In this document: positions 22,095 through 59,995 of the stretch, in pieces | How positions within the stretch are numbered: position 1 is the first letter of the stretch | Layout: every line of letters begins with the position of its first letter | Assembly (NCBI GenBank): GCA_028694805.1 | Contig: JAQVKD010000001.1 | Span: forward strand, 25,549-89,548 | Origin: Candidatus Dojkabacteria bacterium | Lineage (GTDB): Bacteria > Patescibacteriota > Dojkabacteria > SC72 | Direction of reading: 5' to 3' | DNA: 64,000 nt | Made by a program: the position numbers and the translations under genes | Notes under the pieces: model-generated | The model's input: only the letters and a program-made list of their open reading frames with translations | Databases searched by the model: none | What the model was told of the DNA's origin: nothing

Positions 22095-22142
22095 TTACTT
22101 TCTACCTACTTTTATTAATTTTATTTATTTATAGTTCTTATA

Positions 22143-23540
22143 TCATCTTATTGCAATAAGTACTAGAAATATTCCTATTGTTGCAAACATGTAAGTTTCT
22201 TTCTTTATACATGTTCCAAAGAAATTTATATCGTTCGGTGAACATAATGTTAGTGGTGGTGTAATACATGCTGTTTGACATTCCTGAAGAGTTGAATATT
22301 GACCAGACGTTCCCTGTACTTGTACGCATTGATTGTTTATACAATTATAAGTTATTGTTGGGCATTGTACTCCAACAGTTGTACATTCATTAGTTCCAGG
22401 TCCAGAAACTTGAGCACATATATTATTTTGGCATATGTTATGATATTGACTAGGGGTACATATTTCTCCGCATGTATTTTCTGTGAAGCAACCTACAATT
22501 CCAGGAATACATATTGATGGAGTACAAATGTTATTTATACATTGATATGTTTGTATAGATTCACCAGAAAATTTATTTATAATTAAATTTGATAATTCTG
22601 TATGTGGAACATCATATCCCAAAGCCCATATTCCAATTCCTGCAAGTTGTTTTTGATTAACAAGATCATACTTAAAATTTAGGGATTCGGCATCTTCATA
22701 CCATCCTTGGTGCCACTGATTTCCTGTCTTATAAGTGTAATATGGCGATTTCCATGTAGAGTTCCACAGTCTTGTGTATTGTTGAATCTTTGTAACTGCT
22801 TGTGAATACATGAATGATGTTCCTGTTCCTATCGTTGGTGAATCTGGTTGTTGAGTTTGTGTTGTCCATTCATATCCATAATATGGAACTCCTAACAACA
22901 ATTTAGTTTTTGGTATTGACTGTAGATATGTATTAACGCTATCTACGACAGATTGTAATGGTGCGACAGCTCCTGCTGTTGGACCAGATGCCCAGTGATA
23001 ATCGTAACCCATCAGCATGAAATAATTTACATATGGTGATAAAGCACTTGTGTCAAATACATTTTCCCAATCTACTGGGGGAAGATTGATTGACAATCTA
23101 TAATTAGGATTTGCATTCCAGAATGTATTGCTGAGTTTTATTATAAAATTGGTGAATAAACTTCTGTTATTAGAACCATTTACCGTATTTATAGCTGGAA
23201 ATCCTTCTAAATCGATATCTACACCATCAAATCCATTTGTGCTTACTTCATATAATAAGTTATTTATAACTACATTTTGAATTGATGCACTTGCAAGGAT
23301 ATTATCTATTATTGGTGATCCCCATCCTGGATTTATAGAAACTACTACTTTCTTTCCTTTTGAATGTGCATAGTTAATGAGATTTGTCGGAGGATATGAT
23401 TGTTTAACAAGAGAACCATCTGACTGCACACCAAGGAAAGCCCATGCTATTGTTGTAATAGAGTCATAATTTAAATCTAGATATACATCTGGATTTAACC
23501 AGTTTGGAAGAAAACCAATAACTTCTTTTGATAATACCAT
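22143..23540 (-). CDS. GH18 chitinase-like glycoside hydrolase, Cys-rich knot region plus C-terminal TM anchor
   Basis: FDGVDIDLE signature. About 200 nt is identical to 21003..22094. A 90-aa Cys-rich segment, then FATIGIFLVLIAIR. Confidence 0.75.
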   Translation of the reverse strand: MVLSKEVIGFLPNWLNPDVYLDLNYDSITTIAWAFLGVQSDGSLVKQSYPPTNLINYAHSKGKKVVVSINPGWGSPIIDNILASASIQNVVINNLLYEVSTNGFDGVDIDLEGFPAINTVNGSNNRSLFTNFIIKLSNTFWNANPNYRLSINLPPVDWENVFDTSALSPYVNYFMLMGYDYHWASGPTAGAVAPLQSVVDSVNTYLQSIPKTKLLLGVPYYGYEWTTQTQQPDSPTIGTGTSFMYSQAVTKIQQYTRLWNSTWKSPYYTYKTGNQWHQGWYEDAESLNFKYDLVNQKQLAGIGIWALGYDVPHTELSNLIINKFSGESIQTYQCINNICTPSICIPGIVGCFTENTCGEICTPSQYHNICQNNICAQVSGPGTNECTTVGVQCPTITYNCINNQCVQVQGTSGQYSTLQECQTACITPPLTLCSPNDINFFGTCIKKETYMFATIGIFLVLIAIR

Positions 23541-26338: not shown

Positions 26339-28183
26339 TTATATTGAGCTATTGAAATATATTTTATAATCTGTTCCTGTCACGATTGAATATAATTTAT
26401 TATTGAATACAGCAAGACCTGGTGATGTATAGGATTTTCCTCCTATTGAAGTGTTCCATCCCTTCCATACTCCATTGGTTCCCATGCTATTAATGTATAT
26501 ATCATAAGGTGAGCCCTTTCCACTTACTACTGCATATAATCTATTATTGAAAGATGCCAATCTCGGACTATCGTATGAACCTCCTCCTATTAAATTACTC
26601 CATCCTGACCATATTCCATTTGTTCCCATACTAGCAGTCCATATCTTATAATCTATTCCCGATGTAATTGCATATAATCTATTATTGAATACAGCAAGAC
26701 CTGGTGATGTATAGGATTTTCCACCTATTGAAGTGTTCCATCCTGACCATACTCCATCTGTTCCCATACTATTAATATATATGTCATTAGGATAACCCTT
26801 TCCGCTTACTACTGCATATAATCTATTATTAAAGACCACTAAATTTGGACTGTTATACGAACCTCCTCCCATTGAACTACTCCATCCTGACCACAATCCA
26901 TTTATATTCATACTAGCAAGCCATATTCTATAATCTGTTCCTGCTACAATTGCATATAATCTATTATTGAATACAGCAAGACCTGGTGATGTATTAGCAT
27001 ATCCACCTATTGAAGTATTCCATCCTGACCATACTCCATTTGTTCCCATACTATTAATGAATAATGCATAAGGTGAACCTTTTCCACTTACTACTGTATA
27101 TAATCTATTATTAAAGACCACCAAATTTGGACTGTCGTATGAACCTCCACCTATTGAACTGCTCCATCCTGACCACTGCAATGGAGTTACGTTTACTGAA
27201 ATAACATTTGAATAAATACCTGTAACTGAATCATATGGTCTTACATTAAGACTTCCTTCCTCATTTCCTTTAACATTCCCAGTACTATAAAGGTCTACAC
27301 AACAATTACTGCTTCTTGACCATGATAATGATGGACACGATATAACTGATCCAGAACTATTCTTACATACCACTCCAGCACTCCTTGTCTGTCCGACACT
27401 AATAGTTAGAGATGGCGGAGCAGTCATTGATGCCAAAGCTGATGGTTGAGTAACTGTCACTGTACAAACATTCCCTTGTGAACCAGAAACTGAATCATAT
27501 GGTCTAACAGTTAATGATCCTACTGCTACACCTTCGACAGTTCCATCAGTATATAAATTTACACAACATGAACTACTTCTTGACCATGATATTGATGGAC
27601 ACGTTACATTAGAACCAGCACTATTCTTACAAACAACTAAATTTACTTTCTGTCCAACACTGACTGATAAACTTGGTGGTATTGAAATCGATGATACTGT
27701 TGCTGTAGGAGCTGTTACATTTATAAAACATTTCTGTTCTTCAGGGACTTGTCGTGCTGTACATGAATCTCCTACAAGTAACTGAAACGTATGACTTCCT
27801 ACTGCATCATTAAATGTTCTACTCCATGATTGAGGTGATGTTGAACTATTACTCCATGTTCTTTCAGTTACTGCGTCTACTATAAATTCAAATTTATAGG
27901 GAGGTGTTCCACCGGATGCTTGAACTGTGATTGTCTTCGTTGTTCCTTGTACTATTGATGATGGGCACGACGCCAGTGATTCCACAAAAGAGAAACTGTT
28001 GGAGTCATTAACATTTGATATATTTTGAGAAGAAATGATATCATTTAAGTCGGTAACAGATATAAAATCCTTGTACATAGAACTTATATCTTCAAGCTTA
28101 TAACCATTTCTGACAGCCTCAATTAAAACGTCAGTTGATAAGTTTACTATATCTTCTACCTTCAATACTTTATCTATGCTCAT
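26339..28183 (-). CDS. multidomain protein: He_PIG-like Ig domain, 2x Big-like domains, 6-blade lectin-like beta-propeller
   Basis: SGGTPPYKFEF Ig motif. Two CKNSxGSxxxCPSxSWSRSS modules. Six repeats of WSGWxxxIGGxSYxSPxLxVFNNRLYA. Confidence 0.6.
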   Translation of the reverse strand: MSIDKVLKVEDIVNLSTDVLIEAVRNGYKLEDISSMYKDFISVTDLNDIISSQNISNVNDSNSFSFVESLASCPSSIVQGTTKTITVQASGGTPPYKFEFIVDAVTERTWSNSSTSPQSWSRTFNDAVGSHTFQLLVGDSCTARQVPEEQKCFINVTAPTATVSSISIPPSLSVSVGQKVNLVVCKNSAGSNVTCPSISWSRSSSCCVNLYTDGTVEGVAVGSLTVRPYDSVSGSQGNVCTVTVTQPSALASMTAPPSLTISVGQTRSAGVVCKNSSGSVISCPSLSWSRSSNCCVDLYSTGNVKGNEEGSLNVRPYDSVTGIYSNVISVNVTPLQWSGWSSSIGGGSYDSPNLVVFNNRLYTVVSGKGSPYALFINSMGTNGVWSGWNTSIGGYANTSPGLAVFNNRLYAIVAGTDYRIWLASMNINGLWSGWSSSMGGGSYNSPNLVVFNNRLYAVVSGKGYPNDIYINSMGTDGVWSGWNTSIGGKSYTSPGLAVFNNRLYAITSGIDYKIWTASMGTNGIWSGWSNLIGGGSYDSPRLASFNNRLYAVVSGKGSPYDIYINSMGTNGVWKGWNTSIGGKSYTSPGLAVFNNKLYSIVTGTDYKIYFNSSI

Positions 28184-32429: not shown

Positions 32430-32603
32430 TTATATTATTCCTTTTTCTCTTACTATTTTCAAAGATTGTAAATCTATCCCTTCGATATCTTCAAGACTTA
32501 TTAATTCAGAACTTCCTAGCTGTCTTAGTACTGGAATCTGATGACTTAATACTATAAATCCTACAGCACCTACCAATACAAGCAACCAGTCTCTGCTTAC
32601 CAT
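32430..32603 (-). CDS. small TM protein, GIDLxSL family (paralog 3; 57 aa), not in ORF track
   Basis: Own translation MVSRDWLLVLVGAVGFIVLSHQIPVLRQLGSSELISLEDIEGIDLQSLKIVREKGII. Confidence 0.45.
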   Translation of the reverse strand: MVSRDWLLVLVGAVGFIVLSHQIPVLRQLGSSELISLEDIEGIDLQSLKIVREKGII

Positions 32604-32639
32604 AATATATTTCCTGTTATTAGTTGTTAATTTTCTCTA

Positions 32640-32846
32640 TTATATAAATCCTTTTTGTCTTGCTACATGTAAAGAAACAAGGTCAATTCCTTGAATATTT
32701 TCAAGCTTAATAGTAGATAAAGAATGAGATGTTGACAATGTAGCCGATAGCGAAGAAGCTCTTACCATCCCAGGTGAATATGCTGCGAGTAATACAGCTC
32801 CTAGTATTCCTACTCCAATAAGAATTGCGTCTGTTTTAGTTGGCAC
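32640..32846 (-). CDS. small TM protein, GIDLxSL family (paralog 2)
   Basis: C-terminus LENIQGIDLVSLHVARQKGFI. Confidence 0.5.
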   Translation of the reverse strand: MPTKTDAILIGVGILGAVLLAAYSPGMVRASSLSATLSTSHSLSTIKLENIQGIDLVSLHVARQKGFI

Positions 32847-32869
32847 TTATTTCACTTCCTTTGTTCTTA

Positions 32870-33097
32870 TCAGCTTGGGGGTTCTCCTATCCAATAATCA
32901 GGGTCACCTGGTTTTCTCTCATCTATTCCTGGAATGTGAAATCCGTAAGGATTTTCTACATCTTCTGTATCATTAGAACTGTTCTGCAAAGACATTGATG
33001 AAGATACAGGTCTAAATGCAGAGAAACGAGACATCAAGTATAGACCTGCAAACAGTCCAACTCCTACATAGAGTGCACTTCGTTCGATGTCTGCCAT
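32870..33097 (-). CDS. small TM protein
   Basis: TM YVGVGLFAGLYLM, acidic C-terminus. Confidence 0.4.
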   Translation of the reverse strand: MADIERSALYVGVGLFAGLYLMSRFSAFRPVSSSMSLQNSSNDTEDVENPYGFHIPGIDERKPGDPDYWIGEPPS

Positions 33098-33104
33098 GAC
33101 CTAA

Positions 33105-33737
33105 TCATCTCATTCCGTACATCTTATAGATAGGCGAATCTGCCTTGTCCGTTGCCATTTGACCGTAATATACCTGCCTTCTTATTCTCTGGTAATAATC
33201 TTCTGCAGGTAATATTGAAGGTGCTGCGTTAATTCTGTCTATTGAATTAACTTGTGCCATCGATTGCTGATGTGGGATTGCACCATAAGTTCTGTTAGAT
33301 GACTGGTTAGCCTGCTGTAATTGTTGTAATTGTAGTTGTGATTGTTCTTGCTGCATCTGAAGTTGTGATTGTGTTTGAGATAATTTCTGTTGCAATATTC
33401 TGTACTCTTTGCCTTGTAATGTTATGTTTACATTTGCTGGATTAACTCCTTTGTTTGTTAATCTAATAAGAACATCATACCCTACACTTCCTATTGCTGC
33501 TGCAGCTGCTCCATCAAGACCCATCTTAGTAAATAGATAATACAATCCAAGTTTTGGAGCATTATTAGCAGCTCCTGCTATTATTTTATCAGATGTAGCT
33601 GCAGTGTCTGGTAAGTTTGGTTTTATCTGTTGTTCTACATAACGACCGGAAAATCCACTTACTATGAATCCTCCGCCTATTACAGCCATGTCCTTTGCCA
33701 TTTCTGTATATCTTATTCGTTCTCTATATTCTGCCAT
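33105..33737 (-). CDS. YGMR-family protein (Gly-rich N-terminus, Q-rich coiled coil, C-terminal YKMYGMR)
   Basis: MAEYRER...GGGFIVSGFSGR...VLIRLTNKGVNPANV...YKMYGMR. Paralog of 38012..39055. Confidence 0.55.
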   Translation of the reverse strand: MAEYRERIRYTEMAKDMAVIGGGFIVSGFSGRYVEQQIKPNLPDTAATSDKIIAGAANNAPKLGLYYLFTKMGLDGAAAAAIGSVGYDVLIRLTNKGVNPANVNITLQGKEYRILQQKLSQTQSQLQMQQEQSQLQLQQLQQANQSSNRTYGAIPHQQSMAQVNSIDRINAAPSILPAEDYYQRIRRQVYYGQMATDKADSPIYKMYGMR

Positions 33738-33791
33738 GTTTTAATTTCCTCCTATTAGTATCATTTATTAATGCTTCTATTCAATATGTTG

Positions 33792-33938
33792 TCTATCTTC
33801 CTCTTTTTCTCCTCTCTTCTTTCTTCGTAGTTGCTCGCCTTTGTGATGGCGTCATTTTTCTATACCACACAGAACCACACACTGCACCAGGATCTCGAAC
33901 TTTTCCCTTTTTTTTAACCTGGTTAATGCAACTTCTCA
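33792..33938 (-). CDS. small basic protein (48 aa from the internal ATG; possibly longer), not in ORF track
   Basis: MRSCINQVKKKGKVRDPGAVCGSVWYRKMTPSQRRATTKKEERRKRGR. An upstream SD-preceded ATG at 33964-33966 is out of frame by 1 nt in a C4 run. Confidence 0.35.
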
Positions 33939-33985
33939 TCCATCTTTTAGGTGGACGCTTGGGCATAAATTCCTCTCTGTAAAAC

Positions 33986-34174
33986 TTAAATTACAAAGTA
34001 TTTCATCAATTCATATGTACTTGGTGAAGGGCATGTTGCTTGGAATGATGCCATTTTAGTATTAAATGCTGCTGTATCAGCACACATTTTACTTCCTGCT
34101 CTCATTGATGCAAGGTACATTCCTCCGACTACTGCCGCTGCTGCTATAATAGCTGTTGTTTTCGTATCAGGCAT
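33986..34174 (-). CDS. small TM protein
   Basis: AIIAAAAVVGGMYLA helix. Confidence 0.35.
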   Translation of the reverse strand: MPDTKTTAIIAAAAVVGGMYLASMRAGSKMCADTAAFNTKMASFQATCPSPSTYELMKYFVI

Positions 34175-34256: not shown

Positions 34257-34997
34257 TTAAAACATCCTTGCATTTTTGTTACCCAATACATTTCTATGTA
34301 ACTTATTCCAAAGTGCTGGAAGTGAAACGTATTTAGTTTTCTTATAAAATTTTATCACTGCATCTTCATATCTATTCATGTCGTATTCTGCTTCTCCTAC
34401 AGTCTTACCTTCTAATAATGCCTTCAGAAACACTAAATGTATGTCACGAAATATATCTTGAGAATGTATACTATCTACAGGAAATAACATTAAATCTGTA
34501 TATCCACTGTAAACTTCAGCTCCATAACGTATAGCACATTTTCCTAATTGACTTGCGCTATAACATGCTACAGTAAACACTATTGTATCTTTTAATAAGT
34601 TGACATTTGTTTCGTTCATACACAATGGATTACAAATATCAGGCATTGCTAAACATGTGTTTACACACCCAGATGAATATATTAAAGGTTTAATTATTTC
34701 ACGTAAATTTGGCATGTTTAGTAACTCATCTATATCAAACTTTCTTGTTATTACACATTCGCTCTGTCCTTGAATGCTAGATGGACATCCATGAGAAAAT
34801 GTAACTACGAGTCTTGGTCTGTAATATTGCAAAGATTTTGTTACATTGTTATATGTGACTTCGTTTTTCTTTATGTCGATAACAGTGTAACCATAGCTTT
34901 TCATCATCTTGTATGCTTTCTCAGCCCAGTCATATGTATGAATTGTTGGATCGTTTTCCTTTCTAGGTCTTAAAAGAACTATTGTTGAATTATTCAT
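34257..34997 (-). CDS. putative caspase-like (clan CD) cysteine peptidase
   Basis: VVTFSHGCPSS (His-Gly) and VFTVACYSAS (Ala-Cys) resemble the clan CD catalytic dyad context. The fold assignment is inferred. Confidence 0.3.
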   Translation of the reverse strand: MNNSTIVLLRPRKENDPTIHTYDWAEKAYKMMKSYGYTVIDIKKNEVTYNNVTKSLQYYRPRLVVTFSHGCPSSIQGQSECVITRKFDIDELLNMPNLREIIKPLIYSSGCVNTCLAMPDICNPLCMNETNVNLLKDTIVFTVACYSASQLGKCAIRYGAEVYSGYTDLMLFPVDSIHSQDIFRDIHLVFLKALLEGKTVGEAEYDMNRYEDAVIKFYKKTKYVSLPALWNKLHRNVLGNKNARMF

Positions 34998-35016: not shown

Positions 35017-35556
35017 TTATTTCAGCTTCAATTCTTCTTTCCTAAAGTTTTCATTTATTACTTTATCTACATTTAAGTATAACTCCTCTTCGTCTCCTTC
35101 ATTTTTTTCAATTAAGATATTTTCAATATCAACAAATTGTTTAGCTTTATGTTGACAATTTGTTCCAGGATTGTTTTTTATCATACAAGTTACTTTTCCG
35201 TCCTTCGGTGAACCTATACAACTAACATCGTTTTGTTCATGGCAGTTACTGAATATGTCTAGTGCACTTGGTTCATCTGATGATGTTGTAACATGACTAT
35301 GAAATGTACCAACGGGTTTTTTTCCTCTTTCTCTGCATTCTGACTGAAATTTTATGTATCTTTCTTCACTATGAGAACTCTGAGAATGTTCTTGACCAGG
35401 ATATATCTTACTAGTTTTTTCATCAAGACATAAAGTAAAACCGTGTTCTTTATCAGTATCTTGAGTCTTTTCTATTAGCTTACTCATCTTTAATACTGTA
35501 GTGTCAGAAAAGACATATTTTCCAATTCGTTGATCTCTATGTTTGTTAGTTTTCAT
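35017..35556 (-). CDS. JAB/MPN+ (JAMM) metalloprotease-domain protein
   Basis: EHGFTLCLDE ... HSHVTTSSDEPSALD (E...HxHx8Sx2D). Confidence 0.6.
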   Translation of the reverse strand: MKTNKHRDQRIGKYVFSDTTVLKMSKLIEKTQDTDKEHGFTLCLDEKTSKIYPGQEHSQSSHSEERYIKFQSECRERGKKPVGTFHSHVTTSSDEPSALDIFSNCHEQNDVSCIGSPKDGKVTCMIKNNPGTNCQHKAKQFVDIENILIEKNEGDEEELYLNVDKVINENFRKEELKLK

Positions 35557-35559
35557 ATA

Positions 35560-36105
35560 TTAAAGTATCTTCTTACTCTTAAACTTCTTCTCTGTGAAAT
35601 TATCAACAGCGTTTAATAATGCAGTTTTCACTGTTTCTCTGTCTACAGGATCGATATATACATAAGTATCTTCGATGTCAACAAATGGTTTAGCTTCATC
35701 TTGACACGACTTACCTTGATTTCTTTTAATGTAGCACTCTATTTCTCCTTTTTTATTCATTCCTACACAATCAATTTTTGATTCTTCATCACAACTGCTA
35801 AGCAAGTCCATTGCTGAAAATCGAGTTTCTGATGGTCGTGGATGAGTGTGATAACTTCCAATATATTTATCATGCTTTCCTTTACAAGTTTCAGGAACCA
35901 TTATGCTTACATAATCCCCAACCGATGACTTCCCAGGAACCACCTTTCTATCCTCACTTAAACATAAAGCCATTCCATGTTCTTTTCCATTTACAGCAGT
36001 TTTATGATTAAGTTCATTCATCTCTCTAATTGTTTCTTTTGGAATGAAGAACGAATTAACTATTTCGTCGCCTGTCTTTTTAGTATGTTTAGTTCCCTTA
36101 TGCAT
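35560..36105 (-). CDS. JAB/MPN+ (JAMM) metalloprotease-domain protein
   Basis: EHGMALCLSE ... YHTHPRPSETRFSAMD is the canonical E...HxHx7Sx2D JAMM motif. Tandem paralog of 35017..35556. Confidence 0.7.
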   Translation of the reverse strand: MHKGTKHTKKTGDEIVNSFFIPKETIREMNELNHKTAVNGKEHGMALCLSEDRKVVPGKSSVGDYVSIMVPETCKGKHDKYIGSYHTHPRPSETRFSAMDLLSSCDEESKIDCVGMNKKGEIECYIKRNQGKSCQDEAKPFVDIEDTYVYIDPVDRETVKTALLNAVDNFTEKKFKSKKIL

Positions 36106-36797: not shown

Positions 36798-37097
36798 TTA
36801 CTCCATTCTTCTACTAATGTTCACTGTTGTATTCGCAAAAACATCAACATGTCCTGATGCATCTTTATAACCTTGTAATTTAAATACAAAATTTCTTCTT
36901 CCTTCTGTTAGAGGAACTGCTGTTGGTGTTCTCTGAATTTCTTCAGTATACGGATTTGTAAGTATTCTTCCGTCTATATATATTGTTGCACCTTGAGGAT
37001 CCGAATTAAAATGAACTATTCCTGTTCCTCTTTCTAGATATTTTATTCCTTGTGATACATCGAGTGATTTATTTTTGTTACATGAACTACATGCCAT
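36798..37097 (-). CDS. PEGA-domain protein
   Basis: HFNSDPQGATIYIDGRILTNPYTEEIQRTPTAVPL carries the PEGA signature. Confidence 0.55.
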   Translation of the reverse strand: MACSSCNKNKSLDVSQGIKYLERGTGIVHFNSDPQGATIYIDGRILTNPYTEEIQRTPTAVPLTEGRRNFVFKLQGYKDASGHVDVFANTTVNISRRME

Positions 37098-37283: not shown

Positions 37284-37316
37284 TATAGAGATATTGTATC
37301 CACAACAATATCTCTA
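37284..37316 (-). terminator. 13-bp perfect inverted repeat (7-nt loop) followed by a T-run on the minus strand
   Basis: atagagatattgt-atccaca-acaatatctctat. The minus strand then reads agaattttttatttg. Lies just downstream of 37336..37950. Confidence 0.5.
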
Positions 37317-37335
37317 TTTGCAAGTTATTATTGAT

Positions 37336-37950
37336 CTAACTTGTCCAGAGGTCAACTTCAAGAGCAAACTTGATATGGGTAGTGTCTATCTGTATATCAG
37401 GTAATATAGGTCCACCTGTTGGACTTTCACCGACTACATACAAGAACCAGTGCTCTTCACCATTCAACTCAATTCCTTGAGTGAATCTGTAATATTCACT
37501 ACTGGTCTTAAACTGGTGACCAAGCTGAGTACCGACTGCTGCTATTCTCTGTTTAGTTATTGACACATCCTGGTAGAATGGTCTTGCTAACTGAACAAGG
37601 TCTTCAGTTGTTTTCTCTTTGGTGATTCGTATTTTTGTCAGTGGACTGATTTCCTGATCTGTTGTGCCTGCAAGTCTGACTCTCAGTGCATGCGCAGTGT
37701 TGAAATCCTGTCCTGCAGGTACTTGCTGAGTACCCATAATTGACATCTTCTGCCCAGCTGGACATCTCACATCAATAACAGCAGTTGTATTTCCTACTGG
37801 TCCACCTGTCAAAGTTACTATTCTTGTGTTCTTTTCATCAAGAACAATCTGTGATCTTCTCCATCCCAAGCTTTCCAGATACTCCACATAAGAAGTATAG
37901 TCCGGTTTAGCACTTCTTCCGTAAGCCTGCATTGAATTTATTTCTGCCAT
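37336..37950 (-). CDS. putative structural protein, PLTKIRITK family (paralog 1 of 3)
   Basis: VIDVRCPAGQKMSIMGTQQVPAG...PLTKIRITKEKT...GPILPDIQIDTTHIKFALEVDLW aligns along its whole length with 43332..43976 and 42530..43090. Confidence 0.55.
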   Translation of the reverse strand: MAEINSMQAYGRSAKPDYTSYVEYLESLGWRRSQIVLDEKNTRIVTLTGGPVGNTTAVIDVRCPAGQKMSIMGTQQVPAGQDFNTAHALRVRLAGTTDQEISPLTKIRITKEKTTEDLVQLARPFYQDVSITKQRIAAVGTQLGHQFKTSSEYYRFTQGIELNGEEHWFLYVVGESPTGGPILPDIQIDTTHIKFALEVDLWTS

Positions 37951-38011
37951 ATTTTTCCTCCTATTAATTTATGTTTGTCATTTATTTATTTTAATTTTCT
38001 TAATCTCTTTT

Positions 38012-39055
38012 CTACCTCATTCCGTACATGTCGTACATTACTCCAAGACCCTTGTCCTGCATTTGACCAAAGAATCTCTGACGTTCTGTCTTTTCAGTGT
38101 GCTGCTCAAATGGCATTGCACCATACGGCATCGAACCGAATTTTCTTTCTCTTTCTACAACCTGAGGACTCTGTTCAAATGGCATTGTGCCATATCTTCT
38201 CTGTCTCTCCATTACATCTGGAGTCCAGGGAAGCTGGTTTATTGGACCGATCTGCTGTGTAGCTCCTGGAGTATATCCTGTTTCAGGAAGCCACGGAATT
38301 CCTGCAGAATTTGGATTTGGCATTGCACCATATTCTCTCTGCCTTTGCTGAACTGCAGGACTTGCATCCCCAGCATACCTAAAATCTGCAGATGAATCTG
38401 CTCTGTAAGGTGTCTGTCTTACATAAGACCGATAGTCTTGCCACTCACGAGTAGCTGTCGGTGGTGTTGGAGCAGGTGGGTTCTGAATTATTGTTCCAGG
38501 TTCTGCTAATCCCTGTCCAGGAAATCTTCCAGGTGGTATTTCAGTTCCAGGCATTGAAGGAGATGGTGGATATGTTCCAGGTCCAGCTAATTTCTGAAGA
38601 GCTTTATTTAACTCTGTTCTCAGAATACTATTTTCTTGAACAAGCTTCTGTACAGTAGCTGGATTCATTCCATTTCCAAGTACTCTATATCCTGCCATTC
38701 TAACATCATAAGGATTAACTCCTTTATTTGCCAATCTCAGGACTGAGTCATACACAACAGAACCCGCAAGAGACTCTGCTGCCTTCTTTGCCATTGGATG
38801 CTTCGCATCAAATTTCTTTGCTAAGACATACGCACCAGCTTTGGCACCATTGTTAGCCGCCCATGCAAGAACTTTTTTAGTAGCAGATGATGTTTCATCA
38901 ACCTGTCCTGATGCAGTGGCTGAATCCTTAACAAGAGAAGTTTCTATTGCTCTTCCTATTGCACCGCCTACTATAAAGCCGCCACCTATTCCTATACCAT
39001 CGCCAGCAACTTCATTAGCAAATGCCTTTAAATCTCTTTCTCTATAATAAGCCAT
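38012..39055 (-). CDS. YGMR-family protein (Gly-rich N-terminus; RQRRYG/MPFEQ repeats; C-terminal MYDMYGMR)
   Basis: MAYYRER...GGGFIVGGAIGR...SVLRLANKGVNPYDV. Repeats ERQRRYGTMPFEQ, ERERKFGSMPYGAMPFEQ, ERQRFFGQMQ. Confidence 0.55.
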   Translation of the reverse strand: MAYYRERDLKAFANEVAGDGIGIGGGFIVGGAIGRAIETSLVKDSATASGQVDETSSATKKVLAWAANNGAKAGAYVLAKKFDAKHPMAKKAAESLAGSVVYDSVLRLANKGVNPYDVRMAGYRVLGNGMNPATVQKLVQENSILRTELNKALQKLAGPGTYPPSPSMPGTEIPPGRFPGQGLAEPGTIIQNPPAPTPPTATREWQDYRSYVRQTPYRADSSADFRYAGDASPAVQQRQREYGAMPNPNSAGIPWLPETGYTPGATQQIGPINQLPWTPDVMERQRRYGTMPFEQSPQVVERERKFGSMPYGAMPFEQHTEKTERQRFFGQMQDKGLGVMYDMYGMR

Positions 39056-39110
39056 ATTTTATCACCTTCATTGTTTTATTTATTTTATTGGCTTTATTAA
39101 TGTTCTATTC

Positions 39111-39221
39111 TTACTTGCACGCACGAACTGCTTTCTTGAAAGCAGTTTTGCCGCCTCTTTTTCCTTTCAAGTGACGTGCCATGCAAGATTGAAATTTAGT
39201 TCTTCTTCGATGTCTTGCCAT
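39111..39221 (-). CDS. tiny Arg/Lys-rich protein P1 (36 aa), not in ORF track
   Basis: GGAGAT SD. MARHRRRTKFQSCMARHLKGKRGGKTAFKKAVRACK. Confidence 0.45.
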   Translation of the reverse strand: MARHRRRTKFQSCMARHLKGKRGGKTAFKKAVRACK

Positions 39222-39224
39222 CAA

Positions 39225-39326
39225 TTATCTCCTTCTAGATGAAAAGTCAGCACATCTTTTTCCGGCTCTTGTCCTTTTCATCCTAATACATCTTGAGCCT
39301 TTCTTCATTCCCTTCTTTCTTGCCAT
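39225..39326 (-). CDS. tiny Arg/Lys-rich protein P2 (33 aa), not in ORF track
   Basis: AAGGAT SD. MARKKGMKKGSRCIRMKRTRAGKRCADFSSRRR. Confidence 0.45.
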   Translation of the reverse strand: MARKKGMKKGSRCIRMKRTRAGKRCADFSSRRR

Positions 39327-39343
39327 CTTCGATCCTTAATTTT

Positions 39344-39415
39344 TTAGTATTTCTTTCTGCGCTTTCTGCACTTATCTTTTCCTTTTACTTTTCCGTATTT
39401 ACATCCTTTTGCCAT
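39344..39415 (-). CDS. tiny Lys-rich protein P3 (23 aa), not in ORF track
   Basis: GGAGGT SD. MAKGCKYGKVKGKDKCRKRRKKY. Confidence 0.35.
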   Translation of the reverse strand: MAKGCKYGKVKGKDKCRKRRKKY

Positions 39416-39417
39416 TG

Positions 39418-39516
39418 TTACCTCCTCTTTCTTCTTCCACCAACGAAATCAGCACACCGTCTTCCGACACCACGTACACGCTTATATCTAACACACTCTG
39501 CACCTTTCTTTGCCAT
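39418..39516 (-). CDS. tiny Arg/Lys-rich protein P4 (32 aa), not in ORF track
   Basis: GGAGGA SD 6 nt upstream. MAKKGAECVRYKRVRGVGRRCADFVGGRRKRR shares the RRCADF motif with P2. Confidence 0.45.
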   Translation of the reverse strand: MAKKGAECVRYKRVRGVGRRCADFVGGRRKRR

Positions 39517-39615
39517 ATCATTCCTCCTACATTGTTTATATTTGATTTATTTAAATCAATATTATTTATCTTTCAGAAAGGTCGTTTTTATCAATATAGT
39601 ATCACTGGAGAATTG

Positions 39616-39984
39616 TCATCTTATTTTTACCATATGGTGCTCCTCCCATTCTTGAATTGGGTGTAATACTATAAAAAGTTCTTTTTTCTTACATTTCATT
39701 TTCTTACCGTCAGTCTCAACATGACAACCTGCAACGACAATATGCTCAGCTACATCATATTTCTTCGTATAAGCATCTTCTGGATCTTGAAAAAGAACAG
39801 CCATATATTTATGTCTCTTACCATCAAACCCCTCTTCTTCAATCTCTTCAAATTCAGGAACGTCTATTTCCCCATCTACATCTTCAATGTAATCTCTAGG
39901 AAATGCTATATACTCTATTTCATCATTATCACGTTTATCTGTAATCCACAATGGATACTTGCACGGACAAGTTATGATTACCAC
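39616..39984 (-). CDS. hypothetical acidic protein
   Basis: 122 aa, CPC plus two His, acidic repeats. Confidence 0.4.
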   Translation of the reverse strand: MVIITCPCKYPLWITDKRDNDEIEYIAFPRDYIEDVDGEIDVPEFEEIEEEGFDGKRHKYMAVLFQDPEDAYTKKYDVAEHIVVAGCHVETDGKKMKCKKKELFIVLHPIQEWEEHHMVKIR

Positions 39985-40439
39985 TCCATCTTGAATGTTG
40001 ATGCTAAAGAAAGGCTGTTAACATTTTCATCATACCATTCCACAACTTTCATGTTTATTTCTTTCATCCCTTTGCTATTAAACATGTTATGTTGATTACA
40101 TTTATGTATCTCTTCTGGTATGTACATCACATGCATATTATCTATATGATGTCTTACTGAACCTTCAAATTTGTAATCAAGATATACATTAGTACTGTCT
40201 CTTATTCTAAGAATGTTACGCCTTCTCTTATGATGTTTTCTTGTCTTTTTTAACTTACTGTCATAAAACATATTAATTAATGGAATATACTCTTCCAGGA
40301 CACTATATCTATTATAATCATTTTCAAATTTTAAAAGAGATGGAATTAAATTAAAATAAATCCACAAATCATATAAGGCACTAATGCCAAGAGGCAAACT
40401 CAATCTCTTTTCAACTTCCGGATTATGTCGTAAATTCAT
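39978..40439 (-). CDS. hypothetical protein
   Basis: 153 aa with a basic KKTRKHHKRRRN patch. Confidence 0.4.
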   Translation of the reverse strand: MNLRHNPEVEKRLSLPLGISALYDLWIYFNLIPSLLKFENDYNRYSVLEEYIPLINMFYDSKLKKTRKHHKRRRNILRIRDSTNVYLDYKFEGSVRHHIDNMHVMYIPEEIHKCNQHNMFNSKGMKEINMKVVEWYDENVNSLSLASTFKMEW

Positions 40440-40546
40440 GTTCGAACTTTTAATTTAAGCTTTAATATCTTAATAGACGGTAAACTATATAAAGGGTTAG
40501 ATTTGGGACAATTGATACGTTTTTAAAAAAAATTAGAAAGTTAGAC

Positions 40547-41074
40547 TTACCACTGATATGACTGACATGTTTTATGTTCTATAAAATCGTTAATACACGA
40601 CTTAAATCCTTGAGTAATTGTAATATTGAGTGTATCACATCTAGAAATAAACTCTTTCCACAGTTTATATTCGACACTCAAACTCAAACGATATTCCTTT
40701 TCACAATAAATCTTTCTCGCCTTATAAAAAAATTTACTCATTTCCGAGTCCATGTCATATAACCACAACTTCAGAATTTTATTATTTAATGAAATACATA
40801 TATCTCTGTTGCTACATACATAATGAAGAATTTTAATATTTTTTCTTGTGTCGTAATCAGACCATATTCTTACATCAACAATACTGTCATTATCTATATA
40901 TCTAACAGTATTTGAGTAATCATTTTCATGTTTATATTCCTTTTTTTCGTCTACCTTAATTAACATCTCTTCTATTTCATTATAATTTCCAGATTTTCTG
41001 AGAGATACTAATCTGTCCAAAAATTCAGTGATTAATTCATTTTTCTCATCAACATTATTTTCACTTTGATTCAT
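40547..41074 (-). CDS. hypothetical protein
   Basis: 175 aa, no recognised domain. Confidence 0.4.
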   Translation of the reverse strand: MNQSENNVDEKNELITEFLDRLVSLRKSGNYNEIEEMLIKVDEKKEYKHENDYSNTVRYIDNDSIVDVRIWSDYDTRKNIKILHYVCSNRDICISLNNKILKLWLYDMDSEMSKFFYKARKIYCEKEYRLSLSVEYKLWKEFISRCDTLNITITQGFKSCINDFIEHKTCQSYQW

Positions 41075-41104
41075 TAATGTATTACATCAATTTATCTAAA
41101 CAAG

Positions 41105-42487
41105 TCATAACTTCTCAAACACCTCAACCCATTTATCCACGATCTTAGACCATGTATAATTATAAGAAAACTTGATACATTCATCTTTAATTTTTTTATC
41201 TTCCTTATCCCAATAAGAATGCATTTCTATCATAGCTTCAGATAATTTCTTTTCATTTATTAAACCCCTATAAATTCCATCAGGAAGCATTTGCAATTCA
41301 CAATCTACAAGTATTCCTCTTTTTTTATCTTTTCCTATTAATTCAGGAAACGAACAAATGTTTGTTCCTATATTTGGAACACCACATGCCATGCTTTCTA
41401 ATGTAGGCAAGTTAAACCCTTCCCCGCTACTACTACTTATGTGACAATCAAATATGTTATATAATCTACAAAGAGCCTGTTCAGACCATCCAGTTCCTCT
41501 TCCTCCACTATATGAAAATATTACATTTTTCTCTATTCCTAACTTTTGAACTATTCTCATTAGATTTAATCCAACATTACTAATTGGAACTGTATGTAAC
41601 CATAAAACTGTTCTATCAGTTAATCTTCTATCATCTTTTATCGTTAACTGATAAGCCTTCAACAATCTTTCAATTCTTTTTCTTATTCCAAAATTAGCTC
41701 CTACAAAACCAAAAACATATCTACCTTTTACAATTTTCCTTAATAGACTAACTAGATAATATCCATATATAAATCTTTTTTCAACATCATCCCACTTCAT
41801 TATTCCAACTTCTTCTTCAATGGACTCAACACATAATTCATGATTATCACAGCAAGTCCAGCAACAATTTTCAAATAAAAAATCAGGATTTATTTCTGTC
41901 TTTCCTTCATTTATCATATACCAGCAGTAATCAGCACTATCTAATTCACTATCAGTTAATTTTTTAAATATTTTTTCATTATATCCATGATATACAGTAT
42001 CAAGTACATCAATGCCATTCTTCATTAATTGAGTTGCTCCCCAATTACATTGAGCAACTACTTTCCCCCCACTGTCAGTAAATCTCTTTAATGATTTAAA
42101 ACTTCCAATTCCTAATCCTAATCCATCAACTGGAACATACCATATTCTTTTTGTTATTCCAGCTTGCAAAGGAATATCCAACAGAAAATCCATATCACCT
42201 GTATCACTACCGAATAAATTAAATACTATATCAGGCTTTATTTCCATTAAAGTAGCAAAATATGACGCTTCTTCTCCAATGTGTTCATTTGCAATAGGAT
42301 AACACTCAATTCCATAGTCCCACGTCTTCATATATCCGGAATTGAGACCTGTCATTGTACATTCATAACCTCTCTTTTTTAATTCCAAGATTATGTTCTT
42401 AGTTACATTAGAGAATCCACTATTTCTTTGAAGTGTGTCTGATAGAAAGTGAATTCTTAGATTTTTTGTCATTATTTTTTTACCCAC
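41105..42487 (-). CDS. GT-B glycosyltransferase (GT4-like)
   Basis: SGEGFNLPTLESMACGVPNIGT contains the E-x7-E motif of retaining GT4 enzymes. Confidence 0.65.
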   Translation of the reverse strand: MGKKIMTKNLRIHFLSDTLQRNSGFSNVTKNIILELKKRGYECTMTGLNSGYMKTWDYGIECYPIANEHIGEEASYFATLMEIKPDIVFNLFGSDTGDMDFLLDIPLQAGITKRIWYVPVDGLGLGIGSFKSLKRFTDSGGKVVAQCNWGATQLMKNGIDVLDTVYHGYNEKIFKKLTDSELDSADYCWYMINEGKTEINPDFLFENCCWTCCDNHELCVESIEEEVGIMKWDDVEKRFIYGYYLVSLLRKIVKGRYVFGFVGANFGIRKRIERLLKAYQLTIKDDRRLTDRTVLWLHTVPISNVGLNLMRIVQKLGIEKNVIFSYSGGRGTGWSEQALCRLYNIFDCHISSSSGEGFNLPTLESMACGVPNIGTNICSFPELIGKDKKRGILVDCELQMLPDGIYRGLINEKKLSEAMIEMHSYWDKEDKKIKDECIKFSYNYTWSKIVDKWVEVFEKL

Positions 42488-42529
42488 TTTATTTTTGTAT
42501 AAATATGTTTTATTTATTTTATCACTTCT

Positions 42530-43090
42530 TTACGGTAATTCCCACATATCTAAATCAAGGGTAAATTTAATTTTATTTACATTTATATCTACACTTGGTT
42601 CTATTGCATATATAACTAAATGGTCTTCATTTTTAAGTTCACAACTTTGTTCAAACCTATACAATTGAGCATTGTTCTTAAATTTTGGTTTTGTATCCAC
42701 ATGATTTTTAATGTTAATATCAGAATATTGCATCTTTCCAACTAAAATAATCGTTTCAGATGCTCTTTCTTTTTTTATATGTATTTTAGTAGTTAAATCA
42801 ATTTCATTATCATTATTGTCTAAAAGAATAACTTTTAACGAATGTGCAGCCTTTGGATCAGTGCCCTTTGGAACTTGTCCAACGCCATATACACTTATTT
42901 TCCATCCACATGGACATCTTATATCTATAACAGGTCCAGTACAGCCTTTACTTAAACCTGAAAGAGTTACCAGTCTTTTGTTGGCTTCATCAAGACATAT
43001 CTGATTTCTTATGCAATTATTACTTTCCATATATCTTATATATTCATCATATGTCCTGAAATTTGAATAAGTTTTCATCTTTACCTCCAT
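42530..43090 (-). CDS. putative structural protein, PLTKIRITK family (paralog 2)
   Basis: VIDIRCPCGWKISVYGVGQVPKG...LTTKIHIKKER...NKIKFTLDLDMWE. Confidence 0.5.
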   Translation of the reverse strand: MEVKMKTYSNFRTYDEYIRYMESNNCIRNQICLDEANKRLVTLSGLSKGCTGPVIDIRCPCGWKISVYGVGQVPKGTDPKAAHSLKVILLDNNDNEIDLTTKIHIKKERASETIILVGKMQYSDINIKNHVDTKPKFKNNAQLYRFEQSCELKNEDHLVIYAIEPSVDINVNKIKFTLDLDMWELP

Positions 43091-43344
43091 TAAAAATCAT
43101 CTACACGTCGAGCTATCTTAGATGGTTCAGTTTTAATATCTTTAGCTAGATATTTTATTTCATCAAGTTGTTTTTTTAATTTATTGTCTTTATACTTTTC
43201 AAGCAATGTCGAGTCTTCAGCCAGTTTTATTTTTAAGATTGCTCTTATTGCATTATCATCTAATAGAGACATTCTTCTAATATACTTTATATGGTTTTCT
43301 ATGAATTCGATTTCAGTGTCTTGTTCTGAGTTCATTTTTTCCAC
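43090..43344 (-). CDS. small helical hypothetical protein
   Basis: 84 aa, charged. Confidence 0.35.
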   Translation of the reverse strand: MEKMNSEQDTEIEFIENHIKYIRRMSLLDDNAIRAILKIKLAEDSTLLEKYKDNKLKKQLDEIKYLAKDIKTEPSKIARRVDDF

Positions 43345-43976
43345 CTATCTATTTCTAATGAGAATTTTATATGGTTAGAATCTATTTCTATGTCTGGTAA
43401 AATAATTCCTTCTTCACGAGTTTCACCTACAACAAAAATAAACAGATGATATTCTCCACATAGTTCAACGATTTCATTAAATCTATACCATCTTGAAACA
43501 TCTTTAGATTTTCCATTTTCATTGATACTAACATCAAAATAGCGTAGACTATCTAGTTGAACAATATCATCATATGCTGTCGCTTTGGTGATACGTATTT
43601 TTGTCAGCGGATGTACTTCAAATCCTTCTGTATTACATAATTCAATTCCAAGAGGATATGCTGTTCTTTGATCATCTCCCATTAGAACGTCTTGAGTTCC
43701 CATGATTGAATATATTTCTCCTGGAGGACAATAAAAATCGACAACACATGAAGTAATTCCAATGTGACAATCTCTAATGACAGCGTCCTTTTCAGTGAGA
43801 GTTTTATGAGTCATTATCCGACCCATACATTCCATATAATCAATGTAATTATTATAATTAATTTTATTTTCTTTCACAACTTCTCTTTTAATATCACATG
43901 GAAGTGTTTCTTTCTTGCCTACATATTTTTTGTACTCTATATAATCTTCCTCGGTTTCTATTCTTTTATTGAACAT
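43332..43976 (-). CDS. putative structural protein, PLTKIRITK family (paralog 3)
   Basis: VVDFYCPPGEIYSIMGTQDVLMG...PLTKIRITKATA...GIILPDIEIDSNHIKFSLEIDRW. Confidence 0.55.
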   Translation of the reverse strand: MFNKRIETEEDYIEYKKYVGKKETLPCDIKREVVKENKINYNNYIDYMECMGRIMTHKTLTEKDAVIRDCHIGITSCVVDFYCPPGEIYSIMGTQDVLMGDDQRTAYPLGIELCNTEGFEVHPLTKIRITKATAYDDIVQLDSLRYFDVSINENGKSKDVSRWYRFNEIVELCGEYHLFIFVVGETREEGIILPDIEIDSNHIKFSLEIDRWKK

Positions 43977-53115: not shown

Positions 53116-54915
53116 TCATTTTTGAGAATCTATTCTCTTCAGCTCATCACACATCTGAGTACATGCTGTTTTCAAATCTACCCCGTCAAACGGAGTTACA
53201 GCCGCAACCACTCCAATGCTTCCTATTGATACTACACGATACTTTTTATTACTTGGTGGAGATTGAGTTACAGTTATCGTGAATATATTACTTGTGATTG
53301 ATTTGTCTAGGTTCGAGCATGTAATATTCGCAGTTCCCACGCCATTTCCAGTAACTACTCCATTAGTAACCGATGCTATGTTAGTATTATCACTGTTCCA
53401 TGCTAATGAAGGACATTTCATCACAACATCATTTGTGTTTTTACATGTAGGTGTAAGGGTAATCGTATTTCCAATCACTACTGATCCCTCACTTGGAATT
53501 GATATTGACTTCAGGACTGGTGGTAGTGGAGCTGCTGTTACTGTTACAGAACATATATTACTTGTGATTATATTACTTGAGTTCGAACATGTTATATTAG
53601 CAATTCCTTCAGTATTCCCAGTGACAACACCATTTAAAACCGATGCTATACTTGTATTATCACTTTTCCATGTCAATGAAGGACAATTCATTATACTATT
53701 ATTGCTATCTTTACATGTTGCTGTTAAGTTAACAGTTAATCCTGCTTGAACATTTGCACTGGAAGGTATTGTTATTGATGATAACACTGGAGCTGGATTA
53801 TCTCCAACTGCGTTTACTGCATCTATTCTTCCATATCCATAGAAAACATCTCTTCCTGTCTGTCCAAGATCTATTGAAGTAGTACTTAATATTGTCTTTA
53901 CATCGTTAGGACTTAGTGTTGGATTGGCTTTTAGCATCAAAGCAACCATTCCTGACACATGAGGTGTTGCCATTGATGTTCCATTTAGAGTATTATATCC
54001 TGACGGATTACATAATGGACACGTTCCCTTTGGAACAGTTGACAAAACATTGGAACCTGGAGCAGCTACCCACAACTCTTGACCTGTACTTGAAAACGAA
54101 CTTCTATTATCGTTTACATCTGTAGATGCAACTGCTATTACACTGTCATATTTGGCTGGATATCCGATAGTATTCTGAGTTCCGTTTCCATCAGAATTTC
54201 CTGCTGCAGCTACTAATACTATTCCCGCATTCTTAGCAGCATCACATATATCTTTAAGAGCTTGACTGTAAGTTCCACCACCAAAGCTCATGCTTATGAT
54301 TTGAGCGTTGTTATCTATAGCCCACTGTATTCCTGCTACAATCCAGTCATAACTTCCTGAACCATTATTATCAAGAACTTTTCCTATTATTAAATCTGCT
54401 TCAGGAGCTACACCAATAACTCCCACAGAATTGTCTTCTGCTGCTATAGTTCCCGCAACATGTGTTCCATGCCCATATCCATCGAATGGATTGTTTGATC
54501 CATCTACAAAATTACGTCCAAATTTGTAATTGTTTTTCAAGTCTTCATGGTTGTAATCTATTCCAGTGTCTAGAATACACACCTTTATTCCAGATCCTTT
54601 ATTTCCATTTTCCTGGACTTGGAGTGCTCGAATCTTACTTATTCCCCACGGAATCGTCTGAGATGATGGAGATACTGAAAGAGTCATGTCACTTTCAAAC
54701 CCCAACACATGAACATCATCTGGTGTTGTGACCTCTACATATTCCATTTGAGAATTTTTCTTTAATTGCTCGATTTTATTTTTATCTACTACGATGGTCA
54801 ATGCATCAATAGATTCATGCACCATCACAATAGATGCACCTACATCACCAACTATGTTTTCACATACAGCCATTCCACTTTTACATTTTACAATTGCTTT
54901 TACTGTTTCTGCCAT
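53116..54915 (-). CDS. subtilisin-like serine protease (S8) with two C-terminal Big_2-like domains
   Basis: Catalytic triad contexts VCILDTGID, HGTHVAGTIAA, GTSMATPHVSG. Two 80-aa repeats IxIPSxxxVxxGxTxxLTxTCKxxNxxxMxCPSLxW. Confidence 0.85.
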   Translation of the reverse strand: MAETVKAIVKCKSGMAVCENIVGDVGASIVMVHESIDALTIVVDKNKIEQLKKNSQMEYVEVTTPDDVHVLGFESDMTLSVSPSSQTIPWGISKIRALQVQENGNKGSGIKVCILDTGIDYNHEDLKNNYKFGRNFVDGSNNPFDGYGHGTHVAGTIAAEDNSVGVIGVAPEADLIIGKVLDNNGSGSYDWIVAGIQWAIDNNAQIISMSFGGGTYSQALKDICDAAKNAGIVLVAAAGNSDGNGTQNTIGYPAKYDSVIAVASTDVNDNRSSFSSTGQELWVAAPGSNVLSTVPKGTCPLCNPSGYNTLNGTSMATPHVSGMVALMLKANPTLSPNDVKTILSTTSIDLGQTGRDVFYGYGRIDAVNAVGDNPAPVLSSITIPSSANVQAGLTVNLTATCKDSNNSIMNCPSLTWKSDNTSIASVLNGVVTGNTEGIANITCSNSSNIITSNICSVTVTAAPLPPVLKSISIPSEGSVVIGNTITLTPTCKNTNDVVMKCPSLAWNSDNTNIASVTNGVVTGNGVGTANITCSNLDKSITSNIFTITVTQSPPSNKKYRVVSIGSIGVVAAVTPFDGVDLKTACTQMCDELKRIDSQK

Positions 54916-59795: not shown

Positions 59796-59995
59796 TTTAA
59801 TCACTCCATTTTATTAGATAAGTTCATTACAAACTTATTTTGATGGAACGGAAGCTTGGTTAAGGGTACGTGTATGGAGACCAACTTGGCGTTCTTTCAT
59901 CATAGTATTGTAATTGTAACTAGATAAAAATAAAAAAATGAAATGCATATATCTGTATAGATACACGCACTTCAGATCGGGATTTAGTTGTTGTT

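Follow-up and report, generated by a model that had tools for sequence, protein, structure and literature searches.

Three paralogous capsid-like proteins with a predicted single-jelly-roll fold in a Ceres-clade mini-Borg contig

We analyzed a stretch of 64,000 nucleotides (hereafter the window) from contig JAQVKD010000001.1 (GenBank assembly GCA_028694805.1), which is part of a mini-Borg of the Ceres clade and which carries three related genes, designated A, B and C (Table 1). A first-pass annotation of the window had claimed that the products of these genes align end-to-end, and pairwise BLASTP bore this out, with nearly full-length alignments at 31-42% identity (A-C, 42%, E = 7e-50; A-B, 39%, E = 2e-47; B-C, 31%, E = 8e-24). 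The three-way alignment contained 49 invariant columns as well as the motifs quoted in that annotation (i.e., VIDxRCPxG, SIMGTQ, (P)LTKIRITK and ILPDIxID..HIKFxLExDxW). When a hidden Markov model built from 45 family members was searched against the six-frame translation of the window, only A, B and C matched (E = 4e-95, 5e-80 and 4e-70; next best E = 0.03). A, B and C are thus true paralogs. The start codon of A follows a strong Shine-Dalgarno site (TAGGAGGAAAAAT-ATG), the start of C reads AAGGAGACAATAAT-ATG, and the ATG of B overlaps the stop codon of a preceding open reading frame (ORF) of 84 amino acids (aa).

The three paralogs differ in how widely they occur and in how well they retain the columns conserved across the family (A, 63 of 69; B, 45 of 69; C, 39 of 69). 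Among the 120 homologs listed, 114 were of type A and four were B orthologs (58-64% identity); no C ortholog was found among these 120 matches. Overall, A represents the core gene in this lineage, and B and C are accessory paralogs.

Predicted fold, relatives and packaging ATPase

Searches with A, B and C yielded no matches in Pfam, PHROGs or NCBIfam, none in 50,697 phage genomes (tblastn) and none in the copy of IMG/VR that was scanned, and a search of PDB sequences with the family profile returned nothing significant (best E = 0.63). The family occurs widely in metagenomes; a word-indexed search retrieved 188 proteins, all of them unnamed, and an exhaustive HMMER search yielded 153 clusters at 50% identity with E <= 1e-3. 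The structure prediction that had been proposed as a check of the first-pass annotation gave a confident AlphaFold2 model of A (45-sequence alignment; pLDDT 89.4, pTM 0.83), in which an N-terminal helix is followed by an all-beta domain of the single-jelly-roll (SJR) type. The A/B/C family is therefore predicted to have the fold of single-jelly-roll major capsid proteins, and the earlier proposal of jelly-roll structural proteins is supported with regard to both fold and gene context. Modeling supports a match between this predicted fold and the capsid proteins of membrane-containing icosahedral archaeal viruses; a Foldseek comparison with the BFVD viral models was uninformative (low TM-scores, mixed matches). 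That A, B and C would have no role in a capsid and would instead be generic beta-sandwich proteins, such as lectins or discoidin-like carbohydrate-binding modules, appears very improbable.

The wider family also includes divergent members. Two of these, P0198 (379 aa) and P0201 (354 aa), both recovered in the exhaustive search, each consist of two complete SJR domains fused in tandem within one polypeptide. MAFFT placed all single-domain members on the C-terminal half of P0198, and its N-terminal half has single-domain relatives of its own, i.e., P0211 (54% identity) and P0216 (47% identity). Judged by sequence, P0198 and P0201 would represent a natural double-jelly-roll assembled from two sphaerolipovirus-type domains; the contig that carries P0198 is just 1.5 kb long, and an assembly or gene-calling artefact is possible. 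In a further group (P0200, P0202, P0204-P0206, P0213 and others; 270-333 aa), the SJR domain is preceded by a fused, conserved N-terminal domain of approx. 100 aa, with 33-73% identity between members; the window encodes no counterpart of this N-terminal domain. Finally, a contig of 28,351 bp and 32.5% guanine plus cytosine (GC) (L010; JAXAXG0106184081.1) encodes two very divergent SJR members (166 and 184 aa) approx. 3 kb apart, along with a TnpB/Cas12f-like gene, and may be a smaller relative of the lineage.

An A32-like ATPase had also been noted in the window, and it proved to be real. This FtsK/HerA-type genome-packaging ATPase is the sole Walker-A protein in the window, and among PDB sequences it best matches the STIV/STIV2 B204 NTPase (full length, E = 2.6e-4), with HerA proteins next. 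A tblastn search with the ATPase against phage and archaeal-virus genomes matched 116 records, and all 65 of those listed were tailless membrane-containing icosahedral viruses, including PRD1-like viruses (P9, "DNA packaging ATPase"), Bam35, AP50, Vibrio NO16-like phages and GC1. Among the sphaerolipoviruses, matches were obtained with PH1 (E = 2e-11), SH1 (E = 5e-11), HCIV-1 (E = 1e-10) and HHIV-2 (E = 2e-8). The ATPase also matched a PHROG named "terminase large subunit", a label that is likewise applied to PRD1 P9-type ATPases. A tailed-phage reading of the window was rejected, as no HK97 capsid, portal or tailed-phage terminase was found among the approx. 40 ORFs scanned, which included nearly all ORFs of at least 200 aa.

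Gene blocks around A and beside B and C

A is the last gene of a core block in which tiny basic ORFs are followed by the gene for a 347 aa protein, by A itself and by a terminator-like hairpin (Table 1). The tiny ORFs occupy a stretch that otherwise looks intergenic, and arrays of three copies were found at the same position in three related contigs (L001, 8941-9221; L007, 8748-9069; L005, 51-341). Their products may be DNA-condensing core peptides and, by position only, may match the products of genes 86 and 87 in the annotation of another Ceres mini-Borg, Ceres_115kb, and of the highly expressed Black Borg gene 799. In 23 of the 31 related loci with a length of at least 6 kb, the gene for the 347 aa protein precedes the core SJR gene. 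In an alignment with five relatives, the N-terminus of the protein is hydrophobic and rich in Gly, a coiled coil and a Pro-rich linker follow, and the C-terminus carries ERERKYGxMP repeats, the number of which ranged from two to five across relatives; the protein is a candidate membrane-anchored scaffold or size-determining protein. It has a 210 aa paralog, which shares the Gly-rich hydrophobic N-terminus and a coiled or Gln-rich middle, and both proteins are candidates for scaffold or size-determining proteins and for protease substrates. Further upstream, a conserved 122 aa protein, present in most of the related loci with a length of at least 6 kb, is the probable counterpart of the universal Borg and mini-Borg marker subfam5340, an equivalence by position only.

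Table 1. Features of the window and their counterparts in the Ceres_115kb annotation
Feature	Coordinates	Strand	Size (aa)	Ceres_115kb gene	Remarks
Genome-packaging ATPase, FtsK/HerA type (PRD1 P9 / A32 / STIV B204 type)	929..1648	minus	239	134 (best structural match 4kft_C, STIV2 B204)	Walker A GRTGSGKT
Repeat protein	11572..13662		696	"propeller"	144-nucleotide units, six to seven copies in two blocks
Two tandem GH18 glycosidases	21003..23540			also annotated	EndoS/GH85-like
Big_2 protein	26339..28183		614		Repeat units of 138-282 nucleotides
Small-protein run	32430..34174	minus	62, 75, 68, 57; 57; 210		Four single-pass membrane proteins, a basic 57 aa protein and the 210 aa paralog
Paralog of the 347 aa protein	33105..33737	minus	210
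Cysteine protease, predicted clan CD (gingipain/caspase-like)	34257..34997	minus	246	95 (subfam7475, universal "caspase" marker)
Two tandem JAB/MPN-like genes	35017..36105	minus	181, 179	93, 94 (JAB; subfam2087, PF14464)	Weak Prok-JAB matches (E 4e-4, 2e-5); correspondence by position
PEGA-domain protein	36798..37097	minus	99	90 (PEGA), same position	Directly after A; Pfam PEGA E 6e-10
Terminator-like hairpin	37285..37317	minus			13 bp stem, then T-run, directly after the A stop; consensus match only
Paralog A	37336..37950	minus	204	89 (subfam0191; best match 6h9c, HCIV-1)	Core SJR capsid-like protein; ortholog by synteny of gene 89 and of the Black Borg 801 type
347 aa protein	38012..39055	minus	347	88 (subfam6838; Black Borg 800)	Directly upstream of A
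Four tandem unannotated mini-ORFs	39111..39516	minus	32, 23, 33, 36		39-52% Lys+Arg; at least two Cys each; each with its own Shine-Dalgarno site
Conserved 122 aa protein	about 39616..39984	minus	122	85 (subfam5340, universal marker), by position
GT4 glycosyltransferase	41105..42487	minus		83 (glycosyltransferase group 1)	Glycos_transf_1 PF00534, E 5e-13
Paralog B	42530..43090	minus	186		Accessory SJR paralog, directly upstream of GT4
Conserved 84 aa ORF	43090..43344	minus	84		Between C and B; 57% identical to an ORF in L001
Paralog C	43332..43976	minus	214		Accessory SJR paralog; N-terminal extension of approx. 20-30 aa
S8 subtilase with Big_2 domains	53116..54915			71 (Subtilisin; S8, Big_2, HL_N-beta)
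Predicted surface protein	58179..59804	minus	541		PGF-pre-PGF domain

Downstream of A, the order is PEGA protein, conserved 66 aa ORF, 155 aa membrane protein, two JAB-like genes, 246 aa protein, small membrane proteins, basic 57 aa protein and the 210 aa paralog. The 246 aa protein is predicted to have a caspase/gingipain fold with a His-Gly ... Cys catalytic dyad, as in clan CD proteases; Pfam scans of all 43 members of this protease family gave noise only. As gingipains and metacaspases cut after Arg or Lys, we propose that the 246 aa protease matures a particle, in which its targets would be the basic repeats in the 347 aa protein and its 210 aa paralog or, alternatively, the basic peptides. 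The run of small membrane proteins, whose membrane segments are hydrophobic stretches judged by eye, is conserved in L001 and L007 and is a candidate source of internal-membrane and core components. A second, divergent jelly-roll gene was also sought among the neighbors and rejected; when five neighbor families were compared with the SJR profile by hhalign, no probability exceeded 0.3%, and one such candidate, the 246 aa protein, is the protease.

The GT4 glycosyltransferase reported earlier as a flanking gene is likewise real, and B and C lie beside it rather than in the core block. In L001, the counterpart of the 84 aa ORF has no SJR neighbors, indicating that B and C were gained within the lineage (or lost elsewhere in it). 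Two to five SJR matches within 10 kb were found in 12 of the 31 related loci (in L045 to L048, these include one short fragment that directly adjoins the core gene, and those in L010 belong to a more distant subfamily). The extra copies adjoin GT4 in eight of the 31 loci; they follow it in five (L018, L045, L046, L051 and L055) and precede it in three, accompanied by the 84 aa gene in L033 and L060, which matches the window, and without it in L056. Taken together, the existence of B orthologs, the recurrence beside GT4 and the smaller number of conserved positions make a conserved accessory role of B and C likely. Sphaerolipoviruses build their shells from two capsid proteins and a jelly-roll penton protein, and on that model our best guess is that B and C would occupy specialized lattice positions, for example in hetero-capsomers or at vertex or peripentonal sites; both may be glycosylated.

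The same data bear on whether A is the only shell protein, with B and C being recent, fast-diverging duplicates that serve in a non-shell role (e.g., vertex or spike adaptors, glycan-binding decoration or decoys against host defense). The loss of family-conserved columns in B and C as compared to A favors such a role, as do their absence from the syntenic region of L001, the lack of a flag for them in the Ceres_115kb table as published, and the glycosyltransferase as their neighbor. However, B and C align with A across the whole fold, their reading frames are uninterrupted by stops, and each has translation signals of its own. Moreover, B orthologs exist elsewhere, the placement of accessory SJR copies beside GT4 in many related contigs argues for a conserved role, and several jelly-roll species share one shell in sphaerolipoviruses. 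We thus consider non-shell duplicates unlikely, if far from negligible, and retain specialized lattice positions as the preferred role for B and C.

Element identity and host

Across approx. 60 genes (71 to 134), the window was collinear, gene for gene, with the annotation of the complete Ceres_115kb genome by Shi et al. (10.64898/2026.05.22.727314). The Pfam and structure labels agree as well, and this collinearity identifies the window as part of a Ceres-clade mini-Borg, an extrachromosomal element of roughly 128 kb and 32-33% GC. Ceres genes 95-134 include PKD, Big_2, two GH18, PEGA, propeller, GT2 and beta-helix genes, and the order in the window is identical. The identity of the subfam5340 and subfam7475 markers was assigned by position and fold, and orthology to Borg and mini-Borg proteins rests on synteny, run accessions and element size. 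With a GC content of 33.2%, with 55 of the 67 ORFs of at least 110 aa on the minus strand (most plus-strand ORFs overlap minus-strand genes) and with a near-monotonic fall in cumulative GC skew, the window shows the GC content of 30-36% and the unidirectional coding of mini-Borgs. Near-perfect tandem repeats were found within genes at 7455..7577 (period 24), 59264..59373 (period 21) and 60336..60556 (period 42); longer diverged repeats are also located inside genes, and the window showed no clear arrays between genes. The period-42 repeat (5.3 copies) lies in the gene of an unannotated 559 aa protein, which is located in a stretch of locally high GC content (42%). Further traits of mini-Borgs are pervasive tandem repeats, both genic and intergenic, and a linear genome with inverted terminal repeats; the window spans 64 kb of the contig.

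The source contig (128,474 bp; NCBI locus tags PHP08_00395 to PHP08_00465) very probably represents the 128 kb Ceres genome, which Shi et al. list in their Table S3 as Ceres_128kb_32_28_near_complete, with 128,415 bp and 31.74% GC (10.64898/2026.05.22.727314). Runs SRR22315504, SRR22315508 and SRR22315509 carry this lineage, and Table S2 of the same study includes all three among the samples with detectable Borgs or mini-Borgs (10.64898/2026.05.22.727314). The Ceres genomes listed there range from 115 to 199 kb (10.64898/2026.05.22.727314). Landfill metagenomes of the north-eastern US yielded related contigs of 173 and 179 kb, which were deposited as "viral scaffolds". The tandem GH18 glycosidases and the S8 subtilase, which also appear in the Ceres_115kb annotation, are candidate enzymes for the degradation of host envelope or glycans.

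The source contig was deposited as "Candidatus Dojkabacteria bacterium", and related contigs were found in Pacearchaeota, Micrarchaeota and "uncultured bacterium" bins. Given the mini-Borg synteny, these labels are almost certainly binning errors driven by low GC content, and a DPANN or candidate phyla radiation host, as the bin labels would imply, was set aside on the synteny with the Ceres mini-Borg. The 541 aa predicted surface protein contains a PGF-pre-PGF domain (TIGR04213; 95 bits, cutoff 28), which points to an archaeal host. This protein has a signal- or anchor-like N-terminus, PIPDNST and Ser/Gly-rich repeats, a C-terminal transmembrane segment and a basic tail, with no literal PGF motif; a homolog search with the domain returned nothing. 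An archaeal host is thus supported by the domain assignment, and the more specific assignment of mini-Borgs to Methanoperedens, i.e., methane-oxidizing archaea, is that of their describers. Shine-Dalgarno sites, found in 25 of 60 genes, do not separate bacteria from euryarchaea.

Capsid interpretation and comparison with known systems

Overall, we consider it probable (approx. 0.72) that A, B and C are vertical SJR proteins of the sphaerolipovirus major-capsid-protein type, with A as the core shell protein, within a Ceres-clade mini-Borg. A would build pseudo-hexameric capsomers above an internal membrane, and the P9/A32/B204-type ATPase would package DNA into the A shell. A number of observations weigh against this interpretation. 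No penton protein was identified in the window, which represents about half of the 128 kb contig, and none of A, B and C has an extra "tower" domain. The ATPase gene is located approx. 36 kb from A and was never found within 10 kb of an SJR gene in related loci. Only one SJR gene is present in the syntenic region of L001, of L007 and of the Ceres_115kb table, which indicates that multiple paralogs are not obligatory. Published accounts report no observed particle of a Borg or mini-Borg, and the describers leave their viral status open. Finally, at 128-199 kb, the genome exceeds that of any characterized virus with this capsid type by a factor of four to six, and the size-determining protein is only a candidate.

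It is also conceivable that the shell or compartment formed by the SJR proteins is protective but non-infectious, or that they form a gene-transfer-agent-like particle, with the mini-Borg being a plasmid-like element that carries domesticated viral capsid genes. The describers of mini-Borgs report extreme abundance and suggest that the DNA is perhaps environmental and protected by an unknown mechanism (10.1101/2023.08.02.551345); they also report that canonical viral genes such as terminase are missing from mini-Borgs, and we recognized no penton, lysis or entry modules in the window. The dedicated P9/A32-type packaging ATPase, on the other hand, argues against a non-infectious shell, and an infectious particle fits better with the many proteins that are candidates for host recognition or envelope degradation (beta-helix, PKD, Big_2, GH18, subtilase) as well as with a 1101 aa window protein that matches tail-spike and virion-structural PHROGs. 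We regard a non-infectious shell as improbable.

For mini-Borgs, the describers have already assigned both the capsid-like nature of A and the B204-like ATPase in silico; the central identification has thus been published, and the value added here consists of confirmation and a few new details. As compared to the published accounts, in the parts drawn on here, these details are the explicit relationship among the three paralogs, the recurrent accessory copies beside GT4, the unannotated basic mini-ORFs, the gingipain-like fold of the universal marker of approx. 250 aa, the sequence-level tie of the ATPase to sphaerolipovirus ATPases, the subfamily with the N-terminal domain of approx. 100 aa and the two tandem-fused SJR relatives. 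More speculatively, mini-Borgs, and Borgs by inheritance, could be true Singelaviria-like viruses that have scaled the sphaerolipovirus SJR shell to genomes of 115-200 kb and more, with paralogs at different lattice positions, a membrane-anchored coiled-coil and repeat protein serving as scaffold or ruler, protamine-like mini-peptides for DNA condensation and a gingipain-like maturation protease that cuts after basic residues, and with P0198 and P0201 representing an independent route to a double-jelly-roll capsid protein; we offer this broader view tentatively, and the odds are somewhat against it.

Archaeal biology has yet to settle whether Borgs and mini-Borgs are viral or plasmid-like, a question that bears on gene acquisition by methane-oxidizing archaea. 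A full candidate toolkit for a particle in one Ceres mini-Borg (i.e., shell protein, paralogs, P9/A32-type ATPase, membrane proteins, caspase-like protease and basic peptides) provides concrete targets for proteomics and cryo-electron microscopy of particle fractions. The data also expose an annotation problem, in that mini-Borg contigs reside in bacterial or DPANN-type bins and the protein family has no model in the three domain and family databases searched.

Adenoviruses encode a cysteine maturation protease and basic core peptides alongside a jelly-roll capsid gene. The window likewise encodes a cysteine protease and several very basic small proteins together with a jelly-roll capsid gene, a likeness that, as a functional analogy only, points to proteolytic maturation and to condensation of the DNA within the shell. 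The proteases differ, as the one encoded here is predicted to have the clan CD (gingipain/caspase) fold as compared to clan CE for adenain/Ulp1.

The sphaerolipovirus-type major capsid proteins used for comparison were VP7 and VP4 of HCIV-1 and VP16 and VP17 of the Thermus phage P23-77 (former kingdom Helvetiavirae, now realm Singelaviria). In function, the module resembles the sphaerolipovirus capsid module, with SJR shell proteins, a P9/A32-type ATPase and small membrane proteins. At the sequence level there was no match, with an identity of only 11-15%. Sphaerolipoviruses have two capsid species, one of which carries a tower, as compared to three single-domain paralogs of 186-214 aa in the window, and their genomes of approx. 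16-31 kb contrast with approx. 128 kb here (relatives, 115-199 kb). Their ATPase gene is located next to the capsid genes, whereas the window has an ATPase of the right type, similar to those of SH1, PH1, HCIV-1 and HHIV-2, at a distance from A. We know of no clan CD protease, tiny basic peptides or coiled-coil repeat protein in sphaerolipoviruses.

The closest likeness is to Borgs and mini-Borgs, which are the same type of element, with low GC content, coding on one strand and, in the window within genes, tandem repeats, and which show the same gene order (subfam5340-like, subfam6838-like, SJR, PEGA, two JAB and subfam7475-like). Banfield et al. describe multicopy "capsid-like" SJR proteins resembling HCIV-1 VP7 in Borgs and mini-Borgs (10.1101/2024.11.05.622173; PMC12660748). 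In the same account, the cluster of Black Borg genes 799-801 represents 76% of Borg transcripts, homohexamers are predicted, de-ubiquitinase-like metalloproteases are abundant, and packaging ATPases occur in only some mini-Borgs (10.1101/2024.11.05.622173). The best structural match of the SJR protein (HCIV-1, 6h9c) and that of the ATPase (STIV2 B204) are the same in those elements and in the window. Extra SJR-like copies have been reported for some mini-Borgs, as found here, and a reported cluster of additional SJR-like proteins includes Black Borg 867; for the syntenic region of Ceres_115kb, the published table flags one HCIV-1-like gene, as compared to the window, where the 84 aa gene upstream of GT4 has a further paralog on either side.

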